From a virus (Duplodnaviria > Heunggongvirae > Uroviricota > Caudoviricetes): a DNA stretch of 56,811 nucleotides. The translations under genes and the position numbers were made by a program. A model generated the notes under the pieces. The model did not search any database. It was not told the origin of the DNA and saw nothing but the letters and a program-made list of their open reading frames with translations. Shown piece by piece: positions 4,265 through 56,811 of the stretch (within the stretch, counting starts at the first letter, position 1; every line of letters starts with the position of its first letter). The stretch lies in the IMG/VR virus record IMGVR_UViG_2698536317_000003; one strand, written 5' to 3'.

Positions 4265-4423
4265 CGCAATGACTCCATTATGTTAATTAACGGAATAATT
4301 CTACCATTTTGTGATCTTTGTTGCATTTTCTGCTTACACAAAATGTATTTGTTGATTTATGTCAATGTTGCGTAAATGCGGTTTATGGATACTACAAACA
4401 ACGAAACAACGGAGGGTAAGACA

Positions 4424-11660: not shown

Positions 11661-12365
11661 TCAGCCAACCTTACTTGATCCGGGGAAACATGAAATTGGT
11701 AACGAATTAGGGCGCGGGAAACGCAAACGGCAACCGCTGAGGCGGTGACTGCATTTATCTAACGTTGGATCGCTGGTCGGCGCGTCTTTATCAGTCGCTA
11801 CCGGACCGCCACTATATCCGCAACCGTCTCCGCGATATTGCCACTGGCAAACGTCAGCAAGGATGGTGCGCCCAGGGATAACAGCCTTATCTGCGTCTAC
11901 TGGCGTGGATAGTTCGTACTGTACTTGCTCCGCCGTTTCTTCACTCATTGCCTCGACAACGTAAACAGATACCGCCTCAATAGAAGGATCAGCATCTGGA
12001 TTGCCGTTAGGGAAGTTAACGGCGTCCAGGTATTTCACCTCCACCTGGTGGCGGGTTACTTTCATGCCGCGCAGGTCGTTAAAGTCGTTGTTCATTCCGG
12101 TAATAAGCCCGCCAATATTGGCTACTGCCATTTGAGGCCGCGCGTATACCCCCTCGTTTTTCATTTCGAAGCCGCTAACTTCGATCGGGTAGCTGTTGTA
12201 AGCGATACCCTTCCAGATAACATTCCCGTAATAGCCATTAGCGCCGGAATGGAAGCGGACAACATCGCCACCCAGGGGCGTGAGATCTAACTCAAACAAA
12301 TCAATGACCGCGCCGACTCCGGCATCAACGGAATCAATAATCATCTCTCTCGGAATATTGCGCAT
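11661..12365 (-). CDS. L: Minor tail protein L
   Basis: 234-aa ORF with C-terminal Cys cluster; position upstream of K. Confidence 0.8.
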   Translation of the reverse strand: MRNIPREMIIDSVDAGVGAVIDLFELDLTPLGGDVVRFHSGANGYYGNVIWKGIAYNSYPIEVSGFEMKNEGVYARPQMAVANIGGLITGMNNDFNDLRGMKVTRHQVEVKYLDAVNFPNGNPDADPSIEAVSVYVVEAMSEETAEQVQYELSTPVDADKAVIPGRTILADVCQWQYRGDGCGYSGGPVATDKDAPTSDPTLDKCSHRLSGCRLRFPRPNSLPISCFPGSSKVG

Positions 12366-12384
12366 TTTCTCACCTTGTCATTTT

Positions 12385-12400
12385 GTGATCTGTGTCACGC
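12385..12400 (+). promoter_or_regulatory. CRP-like palindrome TGTGA-N6-TCACG upstream of the L/M moron
   Basis: tgtgatctgtgtcacg read directly; TATACAAT -10-like hexamer about 35 bp downstream. Confidence 0.4.
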
Positions 12401-12494
12401 TAAATCATACCAAAATGGATTGATCGCGGTTTATACAATATGTATATTTTACTCAAACGGAAGCACAGTTAACAAAATGGCGCGGAGGTGTGAG

Positions 12495-13019: not shown

Positions 13020-13268
13020 ATGGGGCGGCGCAATCACGGCGATTATGTGTACACGTTGAAACAAGCCGCCCGCCTCGTCGGTTATCATGAGCACGAATTT
13101 ATTGATTTGCTGATTGAGCGCGGGATACTGTACCAGGTCTGTTTAACGCTGTACCCAAAAGCGAAATACCTACAGGAAAAGTCATTCATCATCATGACGG
13201 ATGAAAACCAGGTCAATCATTCATTCGTTACTGATAAAGGTGTCAATTATCTGCGTGATAACTTATAG
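13020..13268 (+). CDS. Moron protein C (82 aa), probable HTH DNA-binding protein
   Basis: Segment YTLKQAARLVGYHEHEFIDLLIERGIL is HTH-like. Confidence 0.45.
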   Translation: MGRRNHGDYVYTLKQAARLVGYHEHEFIDLLIERGILYQVCLTLYPKAKYLQEKSFIIMTDENQVNHSFVTDKGVNYLRDNL

Positions 13269-14023: not shown

Positions 14024-14055
14024 TATACATCTTTACGCGTTGCTACGCGAAAAAT
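14024..14055. promoter_or_regulatory. Conserved 31-bp element ATACATnTTTACGCGTTGCTACGCGAAAAAT, copy 1 (upstream of M / moron E)
   Basis: Near-identical copy at 26650-26680 upstream of portal; contains inverted repeat CGCGT-AGCA-ACGCG on the minus strand. Confidence 0.4.
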
Positions 14056-14167
14056 GATAAATTCGTCACAAGAATTATACCCAGTTTACGAAATGGCTTC
14101 ACACAGGACGCAACAAGATGTATATAGAAAGCAAGAAGAGAAAGCAGTACCAACAAAGGGGGCCAAT

Positions 14168-17888: not shown

Positions 17889-18147
17889 GATTTAACCTCA
17901 TACAAAATATGATCTATGCCTCTATTTTATACAAAATGGATTTACCTCAGTGAACACATTTTGTATAAAGAAGCCAAAGGAAAGGGATAGAGCGAAGGGA
18001 CTTAAAAGGCCGGATTGACCGGAGGAAGCAAAAGAGGATAAGAAAATGAAAAACGTAAACTACCACCCCAACGAACATGAGCGCTATGCTGACTTTATCG
18101 AGCAAATGTTAAAAGCGCTGAAAAACAAAAACTAAGCGGGGTGAAAT

Positions 18148-18507
18148 ATGAAAAGTCTGGCAAAAATCTTAATCGTGGCGGTACTTGCAGGAGTTGCGCT
18201 TAATGCTAATGCTGAGCACTCTCCGTCCGCAAAATACATACTTCGTGAATGTGCGCATAATGCTCAGTTGTACGATATAAAGCATGGTGACGGTAATGGT
18301 GATCTGGAAATGCCATTTAACGTTGGCTGTATTCATTACGCAATGAAGCCAGTATTAGAAAAAACCGCTGAATGGAAAGATCTTAATAGCAAGTACAATG
18401 AATTAAAAGAGGCGGCAAAAAACAATAAAGCGTCACTAAATGCGTTTAAGGATGGCGAGTCTTATGGTGTAAACGTGGCCCACAGAGTTGATGCGTATTT
18501 CAACTAA
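18148..18507 (+). CDS. Secreted (signal-peptide) moron protein, 119 aa
   Basis: MKSLAKILIVAVLAGVALNANA signal peptide; opposite strand to tail operon; own terminator. Confidence 0.55.
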   Translation: MKSLAKILIVAVLAGVALNANAEHSPSAKYILRECAHNAQLYDIKHGDGNGDLEMPFNVGCIHYAMKPVLEKTAEWKDLNSKYNELKEAAKNNKASLNAFKDGESYGVNVAHRVDAYFN

Positions 18508-33917: not shown

Positions 33918-34127
33918 TTATCCTTCTTTGCCTCCCTTGAACCCCAAACACTCCGCGTATTCGTCAATGCTTAATGCTTCTTCACCTGGTGCCAGTAGTT
34001 CGAAGTATCTGGCATATAACTCAAACACCCAGGCAGGATATTTTGCGTTTGCGTTCATCTTCTTGCCCCCCCATCCGTCTTTCTGTGGCTTATATATAAC
34101 AAAATGGCACTGCCGAAACAATGCCAT
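33918..34127 (-). CDS. Hypothetical protein (69 aa)
   Basis: Start ATG lies inside a CCATTTTGTATAC motif. Confidence 0.3.
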   Translation of the reverse strand: MALFRQCHFVIYKPQKDGWGGKKMNANAKYPAWVFELYARYFELLAPGEEALSIDEYAECLGFKGGKEG

Positions 34128-34174
34128 TTTGTATACATTGTGATACGAGTCACATTTTGCGCAATTAACTTTTA

Positions 34175-36462: not shown

Positions 36463-36646
36463 CCCGCTTGTAAATTTTGACAGGCTTAATAGGTATGGCA
36501 GGTAATTCTCCCTCGTTTAATGCGCTTGCCATGCCCAATATTAAACGCGCTTCTGCACCAGTTACTTTTTTACACCATGCACCGCCCGTTTTATCTTCGA
36601 ACAAGATAACAGCAAACTGATCGTTTATTTCCAGCTTATCCATCAT
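36443..36646 (-). CDS. Hypothetical protein (67 aa)
   Basis: Overlaps stop of upstream Q-like gene. Confidence 0.35.
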   Translation of the reverse strand: MMDKLEINDQFAVILFEDKTGGAWCKKVTGAEARLILGMASALNEGELPAIPIKPVKIYKRGDDNEA

Positions 36647-37365
36647 TCACCCCGTGTAACTCGTTTAATTTCGTTATCAGCACGCGCCTCTTCTTTGAAC
36701 AATTCGGCAATGGCGTCTTCATAGAAAGCACGGTATTTCTTCCACCACGTTGATCGGCTTACCGGGAAAACAAGCTGATTAACCGCCTGCCGTACAAGAT
36801 CTACAGGGAAACGCGAGTACCCGCGCCCGCCGCAATGCTGGCACGTTTTGAACACTGGCATTTCCGCCGCTTCACTGGCTGCTTTATCCGGTACTTCGCC
36901 ACGGCCCTTGCATTGTTTACAATGATTGCGAACTGTCCCATGCCCCTTGCATTTTTTGCAAAGGTGTTTTTCTCCGTATTCGTCAAACGTAAATTTATAT
37001 CCGCCGCACTCCATACAAGTTTTTTCCGTCGCGGCGCTTTGGCAATAATCCCGAAACGCGAAAACGGCAACAAGAATAATGAGATCATTGCGTTTGGCCT
37101 CGTCCAGTTCCATAACGTATTCATAATCTTTTGCCATAGCCCTTAAACGCTCTGTAAGCAAAACTACGGCCTTATGTTTTTCGGCTTGTGATAGCTCCAT
37201 CTTTCCCAAAAAAGCGCTATAGCCAAGCTCTACGCGCGATTGCGCCATACCCGCAGCGGTTAGCGCATCCGTCGTATTAAGAGCTTCCGGGGACGTGCCC
37301 CGGCTTTCGTCAGATAATCGCGGTGATTTAGGAAAGTGGAATTTTAGAATGGATTCTAAATTCAT
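36643..37365 (-). CDS. Putative antitermination protein Q-like with four DnaJ-type CxxCxGxG zinc-finger repeats
   Basis: 240-aa ORF downstream of rusA; repeats CMECGGY, CKKCKGHG, CKQCKGRG, CQHCGGRG; assignment tentative. Confidence 0.4.
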   Translation of the reverse strand: MNLESILKFHFPKSPRLSDESRGTSPEALNTTDALTAAGMAQSRVELGYSAFLGKMELSQAEKHKAVVLLTERLRAMAKDYEYVMELDEAKRNDLIILVAVFAFRDYCQSAATEKTCMECGGYKFTFDEYGEKHLCKKCKGHGTVRNHCKQCKGRGEVPDKAASEAAEMPVFKTCQHCGGRGYSRFPVDLVRQAVNQLVFPVSRSTWWKKYRAFYEDAIAELFKEEARADNEIKRVTRGE

Positions 37366-39262: not shown

Positions 39263-39383
39263 AATGCTCTCTCCTTTTAAGGTGATTTCTACGCATTTCA
39301 GCGCTGCCGGATTTTTAAAGAGCATTTTGCTTGCTTGAAGTATACAAAATGGATACGTGTAAACAAGACGAATAGCGCCATTA

Positions 39384-39399
39384 TGTGATCCACATCACG
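39384..39399. promoter_or_regulatory. CRP-like palindrome TGTGA-N6-TCACG nested in a 29-bp palindrome
   Basis: ccattatgtgatccacatcacgcaatgg read directly (39378-39406). Confidence 0.4.
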
Positions 39400-39421
39400 C
39401 AATGGCGCCATTTTGTAAATT

Positions 39422-42898: not shown

Positions 42899-42998
42899 CT
42901 TGTTTTTCCTCCGCGCCGTAAACCTTTTGATTTCAGTTCACAAAACGGATTTACGATCACAACACAAAATGTATTTCTATGTGATCGCCATCACTATG

Positions 42999-46401: not shown

Positions 46402-46692
46402 TTAATGGTAACGGACTTTATCCAGGGGTTTCCCCCCTAAATGGCGTGGTTGCGTTGCGTGGTAGTAGCTGCCGCTTTCATTTTCCGTATACCATTTTAC
46501 TGATCCTTTGCGACGTTCTTTAATGCTATTTGGTTTGCACCTTTCCTCGTTTGCAAATCGAATAGCTTTATCCACATTGTCTGTTTTATTAATTGCAGGT
46601 GATGATTTTCTTTCGTTTTCTCTTTTTATCCTTCTGCGTTCCCTGGCGTTCATTTTGCTATCACATTTTCCATACATAATTGTAACGCTCAT
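46402..46692 (-). CDS. Arginine-rich N-like putative antitermination protein
   Basis: First gene of leftward operon; N-terminal ARM-like NARERRRIKRENERK; GGAG RBS; downstream of nut-like site. Confidence 0.4.
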   Translation of the reverse strand: MSVTIMYGKCDSKMNARERRRIKRENERKSSPAINKTDNVDKAIRFANEERCKPNSIKERRKGSVKWYTENESGSYYHATQPRHLGGKPLDKVRYH

Positions 46693-46786: not shown

Positions 46787-47041
46787 GCTTAACATCTTTC
46801 AACTAATCCCGCAATCATCGCCGTTCCCGGCGTGACCTTGCTCACTCCAAGCAAGCTGACTCGTCGCCTTGCGTGCGGTTTCGTGGGGGATGTAACGCTT
46901 TAAACACCCCATGCGCCTTGTTATCAGTGCCGCTTTCGGTCCCCCCATTGGGGAGTTACTCCACGGTTGACAAGGTGTTAAGCCTGATTTTTAAAGTGCC
47001 AGGAAGCCGCTTTTGTTACCTGCGCCCTTCCTTTGACTCGC

Positions 47042-47070
47042 AATATACGCCCCGTAAAACACCGAGTCAA
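47042..47070 (-). promoter_or_regulatory. Sigma70-like leftward early promoter (pL-like)
   Basis: Minus strand TTGACT-17 nt-TATATT; flanked by 9-bp inverted repeat TTGACTCG/CGAGTCAA and a CCATTTTGTATAC motif. Confidence 0.5.
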
Positions 47071-47160
47071 TCCATTTTGTATACTTTTTTAAAACATTTT
47101 ATATGTTATTGATATTTAAACAATAAATAACGTTTTCTGTTTACGTTTTGGTGCTTTCAT

Positions 47161-47193: not shown

Positions 47194-47841
47194 TTATGGC
47201 AGGTTTACGATCTTCGCATCAACTACCACGCCTATGATTTTTGATTCTGGATTCATAGGGATTGGCGGATACAGCGGATTGAGCGAACGTAAAAGCCTTT
47301 GACCTCCATCAATAATCAACTGTTTAAACGTCGGTATCTGCCCTTCCTCAAGCTGGGCTATAACCAGTTTGCCGTCAATAGCTGGCGCGTGCGGGTCCAC
47401 GAGTATCATCGTCCCCGCCGGGATGCTCAACCCCTGCGGCGCGTTCATTGATTCACCTTTGGCAACCAGCCAGTAACTATCATCTGAACAAATAACGCTA
47501 GTCGTAACGTGTGGTAATGCTGATCGCCTTGTGTCATCCATATTGTTTACTGTATCCTTCCAGTCAATAACCGGGTAACTACCTAAATCACGCGGCGGTG
47601 CGGCCTGAAGTGTATTAGAAACAGAATCATCAATGACCATACCATCATGTGTAACAGTGAACTGCCGACGACCAAGCGCCCGCATAATCCGCGCAATATC
47701 TTCAAGATTTGGCTCGCGGCGACCGTTCAGCCAGTGTGACAGGCCGCCTTTAGTTATCCCCATGAGATCTGCGAGTGAATCCTGACTCATGCCCTGCGCC
47801 CGCATGAGCTGCTTTGCTAAGTCATACCATTTTGTTTTCAT
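47194..47841 (-). CDS. CI-like repressor (HTH_XRE N-terminus, LexA/S24 peptidase-like C-terminus)
   Basis: N-terminal HTH (SQDSLADLMGITKGGLSHWLNG) and C-terminal GESM...K autocleavage-type domain. Confidence 0.85.
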   Translation of the reverse strand: MKTKWYDLAKQLMRAQGMSQDSLADLMGITKGGLSHWLNGRREPNLEDIARIMRALGRRQFTVTHDGMVIDDSVSNTLQAAPPRDLGSYPVIDWKDTVNNMDDTRRSALPHVTTSVICSDDSYWLVAKGESMNAPQGLSIPAGTMILVDPHAPAIDGKLVIAQLEEGQIPTFKQLIIDGGQRLLRSLNPLYPPIPMNPESKIIGVVVDAKIVNLP

Positions 47842-48146
47842 GTCGCTACCCTATAACCTCAAAAAGTTTGATGCAAGTCACAAAACGTGTATTTTAAGCC
47901 TTGATCTTAAAATTCCATTTTGTAAACTTGCAGACAAGGTAAGGCCATACTTGCAAAGACGCAAGGAAAAAGATAACGGAAGGCACAAAAAGGCACATAC
48001 CTTAAGCTCTTTAAAAATCCGGTGTCGCTGCGAAGCGAAAAACAAATATCACGCAACGGCGGGATCTGTTGAGCGGTCAGTCACTGCTATCTAATGCTAA
48101 TGGGATGCCCGCCCGCGCGTTCATTTTAACCATAGGAGAAAATACA
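47842..48146. promoter_or_regulatory. Divergent immunity control region (OR-like) with nutR-like element
   Basis: CTTGCA-type palindromes, CCATTTTGTAAAC motif (47915-47927), boxA-like GCTCTTTAAAAAT with GNRA hairpin TCGCT-GCGA-AGCGA (48001-48029). Confidence 0.4.
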
Positions 48147-48401
48147 ATGAGCATGAACATGATTAGCGAAGTATGGAAAGTAAAACTTAACAGCCCGATT
48201 CAAAAACTGGTCTTAATGGCTCTGGCTGAAAAGGCAGATAACCGCCGTCACGTCATGGTATCACGACAAGAAATTGCAAAAATGTGTGAACTTCCTGTTC
48301 ATACGGTACATGATGCCTTCGCCGCGTTAATGCATAAAGGGTTTGTTTGTCGTCTTGATGCGTTCAGTGATGTCTATGTAGTGATGTTACCGGAGGAATG
48401 A
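48147..48401 (+). CDS. First rightward early gene; small HTH regulator (Cro/CII-position)
   Basis: AGGAG RBS; 84 aa; stop 3 nt before replication gene start. Confidence 0.4.
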   Translation: MSMNMISEVWKVKLNSPIQKLVLMALAEKADNRRHVMVSRQEIAKMCELPVHTVHDAFAALMHKGFVCRLDAFSDVYVVMLPEE

Positions 48402-55436: not shown

Positions 55437-55654
55437 TGGATAAGATCGGGACAATACTTATTAACCGTGAGCAAGTGCAAAAAATGTTAGGCGGGCTTAG
55501 CAAGTCCGCCTTTTTTAAGCTCGTTAAAAAATGGAAAGAAGCGGGAACTCCTTTCCCTGAACCTGTAAAGGGGATGCCAGCATTAAAGCGCGGGGGATCT
55601 CTTTACCGTTATCAGGACGTTATTTCATTTTGTAAATCGATGGGCTTCATGTAG
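55436..55654 (+). CDS. Excisionase-like / small DNA-binding protein
   Basis: 72-aa ORF adjacent to and converging on the integrase gene. Confidence 0.45.
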   Translation: MDKIGTILINREQVQKMLGGLSKSAFFKLVKKWKEAGTPFPEPVKGMPALKRGGSLYRYQDVISFCKSMGFM

Positions 55655-56811
55655 TAATCAGCCAGTTTATTCATCGCCTCGATTTGTTCCCTCACGTAAT
55701 CATATTGATCATAGATAGCCATCATCCCCGCCAGTTTATGACCCAAAACCTTTTCGGCTACGTGCGGCGCAACGCCAAGCGCTGAAAGGTTTGTCCTTAC
55801 AGTGCGGCGTAGATCGTGACACGACCACGGCTCGCCGCCCATCCTTAGCATCAAATCCCTTGCGGCTGTTTTCGGCACGCTCCTGTCTACCGCTTCATCC
55901 CTTCCAGAAAGCACGGGAACGAAGATAAAATTAAAGCCGTGCAAATCCATAGCCTCACGCAATAAATCAACGCTAACGGCAGATAAACCGCGTTTAAACT
56001 CATTTCTGTTCTTACTCAATGCACCCGGCACGGTCCACACACAATTATCAAGATCAAAATGCTCGCGTTTTGCGTTTGTTAGCTCGCTTGTTCTGCATCC
56101 GGTGAATATAATCAGCTTCATCAATATCTGATTTAGCCGCGCCATTTTTGAGCTATCTATAATGCTGATCAGATGGTGAATCTCTTGTATTGATAAAACG
56201 CGCTTCCTTTGCGCCGGGTTTTTGCCAACGTCTTTCACGCGTAGCAATGATATGTCGTCACGCTCCACGCGGCGGCGGCGCATGGCATATTTTATAACCG
56301 CCTTCATCCTGTTTAAGACTATCCCGGCCTGAACGGGCGCGCCACCATTAGCTACCTTTCTAAAAATTCCCTCCCACATTATGGCGTCCATATCATCAAC
56401 AATATAGCTACCGCATGGTTTGACAATATGCTTGCTTAACATCGCTTCGACTTGCTTATGGTTGACCATGTTTCTTGCCTGCGGTGATTCCATATATTCC
56501 CTGACAATATCTTCAACGGTCGCCCGTGTCGTAACGCGGGAAAGGTGCATTCTTTTTACGATCGATGGATCTCGCCCTGAGTTTAATATTTCCTTATGTT
56601 CCGCCACCGCCGCGCGGGCTTCTTTGAGCGTTATTTCTCCGTAAGTGCCAATCTTCATCCGTCGCGGCTTGCCGTTGAATCGGTAGCGATACTGGAAAGA
56701 TATAACGCCGTGCGGGCTTATCCTGGCAGACAATCCGCCCGCGTCCGGGACTTCTTCCGGGCCGTCATATGGCTTGCCGTGGATGTTTCGTAATTTGGTA
56801 TCTGTAAGCAT
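55612..56811 (-). CDS. Tyrosine integrase, P4-type
   Basis: 399-aa ORF with arm-binding N-terminus (MLTDTKLRN...ISFQYRYRFNGK) and C-terminal catalytic domain; 5-prime end at window edge. Confidence 0.9.
   Translation of the reverse strand: MLTDTKLRNIHGKPYDGPEEVPDAGGLSARISPHGVISFQYRYRFNGKPRRMKIGTYGEITLKEARAAVAEHKEILNSGRDPSIVKRMHLSRVTTRATVEDIVREYMESPQARNMVNHKQVEAMLSKHIVKPCGSYIVDDMDAIMWEGIFRKVANGGAPVQAGIVLNRMKAVIKYAMRRRRVERDDISLLRVKDVGKNPAQRKRVLSIQEIHHLISIIDSSKMARLNQILMKLIIFTGCRTSELTNAKREHFDLDNCVWTVPGALSKNRNEFKRGLSAVSVDLLREAMDLHGFNFIFVPVLSGRDEAVDRSVPKTAARDLMLRMGGEPWSCHDLRRTVRTNLSALGVAPHVAEKVLGHKLAGMMAIYDQYDYVREQIEAMNKLADYYMKPIDLQNEITS

Follow-up and report, generated by a model that had tools for sequence, protein, structure and literature searches.

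A repeated candidate promoter cassette with CRP-type sites in a mEpimmI-type prophage of Escherichia coli

INTRODUCTION

Temperate phages are known to carry dispersed repressor sites (e.g., the C1 operators of P1 and the stoperators of mycobacteriophage L5). Promoters that depend on an activator are usually weak by consensus, and at the lac promoter 17 nt separate the core of the CRP site from the -35 hexamer. A search of the literature on CRP control of temperate phages returned only the case of phage T1, several promoters of which are directly regulated by cAMP-CRP (Laganenka et al. 2019, PMC6737242).

The mEpimmI group comprises non-lambdoid, Nus-dependent phages (PMC11893012), which reportedly equal lambdoid phages in frequency among the temperate coliphages of human feces (PMC11893012). 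In mEp021, a third nut site, nutR2, has been described downstream of a methyltransferase gene (PMC11893012). The accessible portion of PMC11893012 contains no mention of CRP or of CRP dependence and leaves the repressor operator sequences open. Within that portion and the related phage literature, we found no description of mEpimmI promoters or operators.

Here, we describe CRP-type palindromes in one prophage of this group, the predicted promoters that they accompany, and the regulators that may read them.

RESULTS

Identity and gene layout of the prophage

The window (i.e., the whole stretch of 56,811 nt analyzed here; IMG/VR record IMGVR_UViG_2698536317_000003) matches E. coli abgT at positions 1-1446 (the first ~1.4 kb). 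The prophage sits beside abgT, whose presence at the start of the window identifies the host as E. coli. The rest of the window is prophage DNA with 87 to 90% identity to mEp021 and its relatives (i.e., mEp010, mEp013, mEp044, mEp515, mEp554, and MagusPhagus), and on sequence similarity we assign it to an E. coli prophage of the mEp021 group (mEpimmI), in an orientation that is the reverse of the mEp021 record.

The CI-like repressor gene (47194-47841, minus strand) encodes a protein with HTH_3 and Peptidase_S24 domains in Pfam that resembles lambda CI (3bdn, E = 1e-19), and an N-like antiterminator gene is present at 46402-46692 (minus strand). A long leftward run of genes covers recombination, nin-type, Q-like (36643-37365), lysis, head, and tail functions, and the replication genes run rightward from 48147. 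The promoter scan predicted a strong leftward early promoter at 47070-47042 on the minus strand (TTGACT-17-TATATT; 10/12). The window is closed by a minus-strand ORF of 399 aa (55612-56811), which encodes a putative integrase.

Number and scores of the CRP-type sites

Sequence match, enrichment, conservation pattern, and register with the predicted promoter elements are direct results of the sequence analysis, as is the failure to find a CRP homolog encoded by the phage. A preliminary description had pointed out three palindromes of the TGTGA-N6-TCAC type, and all three are present: TGTGATCTGTGTCAC at 12384-12398 (site 1, for which the earlier coordinates, 12385-12400, were one base off), TGTGATCCACATCAC at 39384-39398 (site 2), and TGTGATCGCCATCAC at 42980-42994 (site 3). 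Two further sites, absent from that description, were identified at 34139-34154 (site 4) and at 47864-47885 (the early-promoter site). The sites conform to a two-fold symmetric TGTGA-N6-TCACA core. Four of them are exact for TGTGA-N6-TCAC and account for five matches in the window, versus 0.41 +/- 0.73 expected from dinucleotide shuffles; at least five matches were reached in 0 of 100 shuffles. The core of site 4 is fully symmetric and is the sole such core among the exact matches, and in the early-promoter site (core at 47867) TTTGA replaces TGTGA in one half.

We scored the window with a symmetrized 22-bp CRP weight matrix derived from 18 classical CRP sites, which gives approximate scores and ranges from 3.4 to 16.7 bits on its own training sites. 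The 22-mers starting at 39381 (site 2; 18.3 bits), 12381 (site 1; 17.8 bits), 47864 (17.6 bits), and 34136 (site 4; 17.2 bits) all exceed the highest of the 18 training scores, and lower values were obtained at 4307 (12.9 bits) and 42977 (site 3; 11.0 bits). Four sites thus reach at least 14 bits, versus 0.38 expected and a shuffle maximum of 2. Formal scoring of this kind had been proposed in the preliminary description as a check on its three sites; sites 1 and 2 score high, whereas site 3 is borderline.

Strong CRP-type sites are a property of the mEpimmI phage group: 156 sites of at least 15 bits occur in 1.51 Mb of mEpimmI loci, versus none in 0.55 Mb of other phages having tail protein L (~73% identity). 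Moderate sites of ~12 to 13 bits occur in prophages whose repressor is only 38% identical (L049-L051; near 10005, 11480, and 12567; CRP-type site CTTTGTGAGTAAGTTAACAAAT, 12.7 bits), the best L049/L050 site lying just past a terminator-like hairpin that apparently comes after the repressor gene. These sequences hint at a theme reaching beyond the mEpimmI group.

Conservation of half-sites and the pooled logo

Homologous loci were drawn from IMG/VR and each region was aligned, which yielded 22 to 36 distinct homologous sequences per site. At site 1, 35 of 36 distinct homologs have TGTGA as the left half and every one has TCACG as the right half, around 12 different central hexamers. At site 2, both TGTGA and TCAC(G/A) are found in 36/36 homologs, with 15 central hexamers. 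Column entropies for the half-sites, the central four positions, and the rest of the alignment are 0.02, 0.87, and 0.23 at site 1 and 0.10, 1.07, and 0.29 at site 2. Both sites thus combine selected half-sites with a free center, the pattern that a dimeric protein contacting two half-sites but not the spacer between them is expected to leave. The effect is weak at site 3, which is much less constrained (0.35, 0.54, and 0.37); only half of its 34 homologs reach 10 bits, and the half-sites are mutated in ~10 of them (TGTAA, TGCGA, and TTACT). Site 3 is the weakest and least conserved of the sites described earlier. At site 4 and at the 17905 and 4307 sites described below, most homologs have only one good half.

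The optimal CRP half-site is AAATGTGATCT, and the logo pooled from seven cassettes and their homologs, WWnTGTGATct...rTCACAWWW, agrees with it, including the secondary preferences at positions 9 to 11. The A/T-rich flanks and the T-C-T after TGTGA, which are secondary preferences of CRP, also appear in this logo. Position 9 of the promoter-distal half is a T with 98% conservation, whereas its mirror position in the other half is free. This asymmetry is not predicted by a symmetric dimer alone and may reflect common descent of the cassettes.

Other known readers of such sequences were considered and rejected. The LexA consensus does not fit (by eye). For FNR (TTGAT-N4-ATCAA), only the left half of the 47867 core reads TTGAT, the others having GTGA. 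As for Dam methylation, GATC is unremarkable in number (271 versus 218 expected), and GATC within the sites is not strictly kept.

The palindromes might instead be read by a dimeric regulator encoded by the phage itself, either the CI-like repressor or an 84-aa winged-helix protein (48147-48401), and the confinement of the sites to the mEpimmI group and a position-9 T stricter than expected for CRP are in keeping with such a regulator. The 84-aa protein, encoded by the first gene after the early promoter, gives faint, below-cutoff hits to HTH_Crp_2, MarR_2, and TrmB (E ~5e-3; 17 bits versus a cutoff of 27), which were all that Pfam scans of ten candidate proteins gave toward a CRP-like protein, and it has an RQEI motif in common with the helix-turn-helix of CRP (by eye). 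However, in our own alignment it has VHTVHD where CRP has the base-contacting RETVGR, and an unrelated protein would match the full 11-bp CRP half-site optimum only by coincidence. No CRP/FNR-family protein was found in the window by six-frame tblastn (E. coli CRP query; best E = 8.4). Moreover, the leftward early promoter, which is repressor controlled, has no palindrome (best score of 0.3 in the upstream 95 nt), the palindrome at the rightward promoter lies at ~-60, which is not a repressing position, and the 11-mer TCCATTTTGTA is a better operator candidate. The preliminary description had allowed that the sites could equally belong to a phage-encoded regulator of similar specificity; with no CRP/FNR protein in the window and a different motif, TCCATTTTGTA, shared by the early promoters, we regard this as rather unlikely.

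Register of the predicted promoters

Read toward the downstream genes, each assigned cassette presents the core, then a TTGnnn-type hexamer, and then a TAnnnT-type hexamer. The distances from core to predicted -35, with hexamers mostly assigned by eye, are 17, 17, 17, 17, 18, 19-20, and 27 nt. The promoter cassette is repeated, with at least five to seven copies in this mEpimmI-type prophage, and its hexamers are conserved among the aligned homologs. With the usual -10-to-start distance assumed, the computed centers are -59.5 to -60.5, apart from site 1 (-62.5 to -63.5) and the copy at 14052 (-70.5); the value near -60 is uncertain by 1 to 2 bases, given by-eye hexamers and predicted start sites. 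The predicted centers would correspond to class I positions, which lie near -61.5 or one or more helical turns farther upstream. Most cassette promoters score below the 9/12 threshold of the promoter scan, and that of site 1 just reaches 9/12, i.e., the core promoters are weak. Across the phage family, of 225 distinct contexts in which a site reaches at least 12 bits, 104 have the 22-mer starting exactly 50 or 51 nt ahead of a CCATTTTGT spacer motif.

Sites facing morons and tail genes

Site 1 (TTTTGTGATCTGTGTCACGCTA; 12381-12402, core 12384-12399, plus strand) occupies the gap between two divergent units, tail gene L (start at 12365, minus strand) and a plus-strand moron composed of small ORFs from ~12496, including an ANT/KilAC-domain protein (13020-13268; ANT domain, Pfam E = 2.3e-6). 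The predicted promoter (TTGATC-17-TATATT; 12420-12448, plus strand) has hexamers that are conserved in the alignment, and its -35 lies 20 nt from the core (19 nt in many homologs). A candidate opposing promoter on the minus strand (12475-12446) would place site 1 within a 5' leader, which counts against a role for CRP there.

Two degenerate copies also face opposite-strand genes. The copy at 14052-14073 (AAATGATAAATTCGTCACAAGA, plus strand) scores 6.6 bits in the window but 11.6 bits at the same place in mEp021 and 15.1 bits in MagusPhagus, and it lies 27 nt upstream of TTCACA (14098-14103) -17- TATATA (14121-14126). The copy at 17905-17926 (AAATATGATCTATGCCTCTATT, plus strand; 6.2 bits in the window) lies 17 nt upstream of TTTACC (17941-17946) -17- TATAAA (17964-17969) and faces the opposite-strand ORF 18148-18507; its left half is TGTGA in 29/30 homologs, and its right half is always poor. 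Only site 1 and these two weaker cassettes face opposite-strand morons. A half-good site at 4307-4328 (TTTTGTGATCTTTGTTGCATTT, plus strand), in the gap between a tail-fiber gene and a lipoprotein region, reaches up to 17.5 bits in MagusPhagus and has TGTGA as its left half in 25/28 homologs; we could assign no promoter to it.

The early-promoter site and possible repression by CRP

The site at 47864-47885 (AAGTTTGATGCAAGTCACAAAA, plus strand; core TTTGATGCAAGTCACA at 47867-47882) is located in the interval that separates the repressor gene from the rightward early promoter, and its half-sites are invariant in 22 distinct homologs. It is located 18 nt upstream of TTGATC (47901-47906) -16- TAAACT (47923-47928), and this promoter is followed by a boxA (48006-48022) and then by the replication genes.

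By eye, a leftward promoter for the repressor gene has only one plausible -35, and the same site, centered at ~-33, overlaps it. CRP might accordingly bind the palindromes and mainly repress, act as a roadblock, or have mixed effects rather than serve as a class I activator, e.g., by shutting the repressor-maintenance promoter here or by blocking leftward transcription into gene L at site 1, where the candidate minus-strand promoter lies upstream of the site. Repression has a precedent in the pir, dam, and recE promoters of T1, which are repressed by cAMP-CRP (PMC6737242). Repression, however, needs no fixed register, whereas at least five cassettes share the same register to the -35, which equals that of lac, and their promoters are weak, as expected if an activator is needed. 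We consider a mainly repressive role unlikely.

The repressor gene may have a near-leaderless transcript (47842-47900, minus strand): TTGCAT-17-TAGGGT ends 6 nt before the ATG (by eye), an arrangement that we liken to that of lambda cI and in which the CRP-type site would cover the -35.

Sites 3 and 4

Site 3 (CTATGTGATCGCCATCACTATG on the plus strand; 42977-42998, read on the minus strand) lies 17 nt upstream of TTGTGA (42962-42957) -17- TGAACT (42940-42935). Site 4 (34136-34157, minus strand) has the symmetric core TGTGATACGAGTCACA at 34139-34154, and TTGTTT (34121-34116) -17- TATATA (34098-34093) follows 17 nt downstream. Among 23 distinct homologs of site 4, the promoter-distal GTGA is invariant and the promoter-proximal half is variable. 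Homology among these sequences starts exactly at the palindrome, and the flanking genes on both sides differ among phages. The site 4 cassette (34091-34157; loci L132-L163) is a mosaic junction, and its sequence context suggests that the cassette may serve as a unit of module exchange.

Site 2, the t4 hairpin, and nutR2

Site 2 (TTATGTGATCCACATCACGCAA on the plus strand; 39381-39402, core 39384-39399, read on the minus strand) was described earlier as nested in a 29-bp palindrome; this palindrome is real and extends to 39375-39409. On the transcribed strand, 39375-39409 folds into an RNA hairpin of -24.8 kcal/mol (z = -6.2). On the minus strand, this is the same sequence element as TERM_4, annotated in the mEp021 record MH706966, and, judging from the accessible text of PMC11893012, TERM_4 is probably the predicted terminator t4 of that paper. 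The hairpin is strong and the U-tail (UAUUCGUCUUGUUU) is weak, and a terminator scan does not call the element. The predicted site 2 promoter (39339-39366, minus strand; by eye) has TTGTTT at 39366-39361, a 16-nt spacer, and TATACT at 39344-39339; it begins 17 nt past the core, falls below the threshold of the generic promoter scan, and has hexamers conserved in 36 homologs. Downstream of it is nutR2 (39291-39324, minus strand), with boxA TGCTCTTTAAAAATCCGG at 39324-39307 and boxB GCGCTGAAATGCGT at 39304-39291. The local order is therefore a hairpin with the CRP consensus at its apex, the predicted promoter, nutR2, and then ninF, ninG, and the Q-like gene.

More broadly, boxA-like sequences (GCTCTTTAAAAATCCGG, and GCACTTTAAAAATCAGG on the minus strand) occur at 48006-48022 (+), 39307-39324 (-), and ~46970-46990 (-), i.e., after both early promoters and after the site 2 promoter. 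They are probably the nutL, nutR2, and nutR1 sites reported for mEp021.

The location of site 2 raises the alternative that the palindromes are conserved for nucleic-acid structure, as RNA hairpins or terminators or as DNA junctions for module recombination. The hairpin that has site 2 at its apex carries a terminator annotation in mEp021, the one position that varies in its outer stem would keep a U-G wobble pair on the transcribed strand in most homologs (by eye), and site 4 lies exactly at a mosaic junction. Nevertheless, the other sites form no stable hairpin (z = -0.3, +0.7, -0.1, -1.8, and -0.1), the stem bases never covary but are simply unchanged, and structure fails to explain either the fixed distance to the promoter hexamers or the A/T-rich flanks. 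A search of the palindrome regions against Rfam returned no match. As an account of the palindromes in general, conservation for structure is thus highly improbable, and an RNA-structure reading of the whole site family was rejected, since only site 2 folds stably.

A second motif and candidate operators

The 9-mer CCATTTTGT / ACAAAATGG has 15 exact occurrences in the window (4304, 11637, 12472, 14848, 17931, 21502, 25440, 34099, 34124, 39344, 39408, 47072, 47827, 47915, and 51702), versus 0.99 expected; the highest count among 300 shuffles was 6. Its copies directly adjoin either the -10, as CCATTTTG(T), or the -35, as ACAAAATGG at ~-46 to -37. Two inverted pairs, one at site 4 and one at 17931/17956, flank the -35, the two copies of each pair being separated by 16 nt. 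Recognition by a phage regulator of its own is the more likely explanation of CCATTTTGT.

The palindromes were rejected as operators of the CI-like repressor: such an operator should overlap both early promoters, and the palindromes do not, being absent at the leftward promoter and ~60 nt upstream at the rightward one. Except for a single stray 7-mer match in inverted orientation, no word of at least 7 bases other than the 11-mer TCCATTTTGTA (47071-47081 and 47914-47924) is shared by the two early promoters, and TCCATTTTGTA is therefore a candidate operator, to be read by the CI-like repressor or by a different phage regulator. Another possible operator set is formed by short CTTGC-N6-GCAAG palindromes just downstream of the early-promoter -10; in the region 47928-47970, ACTTGC occurs at 47929 and 47952, and the inverted GCAAGT lies inside the spacer of the 47867 site. 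The leftward early promoter has its -35 to -10 region enclosed in an 8-bp inverted repeat, TTGACTCG ... CGAGTCAA (47033-47072).

DISCUSSION

Class I activation of the repeated promoter cassette by host cAMP-CRP is our best reading of these sequences and, on the evidence of the palindromes and their register, a probable one. The CRP-like character claimed in the preliminary description is borne out by the scores, the conserved half-sites with a free spacer, the flanks, and the promoter placement, whereas its extension to CRP control of the genes stays a prediction. The earlier framing of the sites as lying upstream of accessory or cargo gene blocks proved too narrow. Site 1 does stand before a moron, but the cassettes also serve core early promoters and hence not only cargo genes: the 47864 site accompanies the predicted promoter before the replication genes, and site 2 accompanies that before ninF-ninG-Q, between the predicted t4 and nutR2. 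Several observations count against the CRP reading, among them the decay of site 3, the copies with one good half, the TTTGA at the early-promoter site, and the position of site 2 at the top of a strong hairpin, which alone could explain its conservation.

In the mechanism that we propose, the binding of CRP, the start sites of transcription, and whether regulation is positive or negative are inferred. A cAMP-CRP dimer bound at ~-60 (~-63 at site 1 and ~-70 at one cassette) would interact with the alpha subunit of RNA polymerase through the latter's C-terminal domain, and this domain, seated on the A-rich DNA that immediately precedes the weak -35, would recruit the polymerase. At high cAMP, stronger firing would be expected from the rightward early promoter and the opposite-strand moron promoters, from the promoter that would restart transcription past the predicted t4 and load nutR2, and from two further leftward promoters.

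A more tentative extension, which we put forward as a possibility, is that the mEpimmI family employs dual control on one portable cassette, with CRP at ~-60 as the accelerator and a phage factor acting on CCATTTTGT / ACAAAATGG as the brake. Under dual control, the repeats that bracket the -35 and -10 would bind the phage factor, and the cassette would also be the unit at which genome modules exchange. The early lytic promoter, the promoter that reloads nutR2, and the morons would then all read the carbon status of the host.

Phage gene expression is probably tied to the nutritional state of the host, and if the early and internal promoters need cAMP-CRP, the outcome of infection, induction, and moron expression in the gut would follow the host sugar supply. 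The coordinates given here also supply a map of candidate promoters for the mEpimmI phage family.

The described systems closest to this locus resemble it in different respects. The P1 C1 operators and the L5 stoperators share with it a short motif present at many promoters, a likeness that would fit CCATTTTGT better than the palindromes. The lac promoter and other class I CRP promoters share the 22-bp site, the TGTGA-N6-TCACA core, the 17-nt gap to a -35 (predicted in the phage), which puts the center at ~-61, and a weak core promoter; the phage differs from lac in that its cassette is repeated at least 5 times in one genome, is accompanied by a phage-specific 9-mer next to the -35 and -10, and has predicted centers of -59.5 to -63.5, with -70.5 for one cassette. 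In mEp021, TERM_4 and nutR2 represent the same palindrome element followed by boxA and boxB, as described (MH706966 and the accessible text of PMC11893012), and neither that text nor the GenBank annotation mentions the CRP consensus at the hairpin apex or a promoter between the hairpin and nutR2. Phage T1 offers the likeness of host CRP acting on several coliphage promoters, with development coupled to sugar uptake (PMC6737242). The effect in T1 is repression of pir, dam, and recE, in a paper that never uses the phrase "binding site" (PMC6737242), whereas the geometry of the mEpimmI cassettes predicts activation, and the two phages are unrelated. In this prophage, class I CRP-type promoters are predicted to occur as a repeated cassette, in a group of gut coliphages that is common but little studied.
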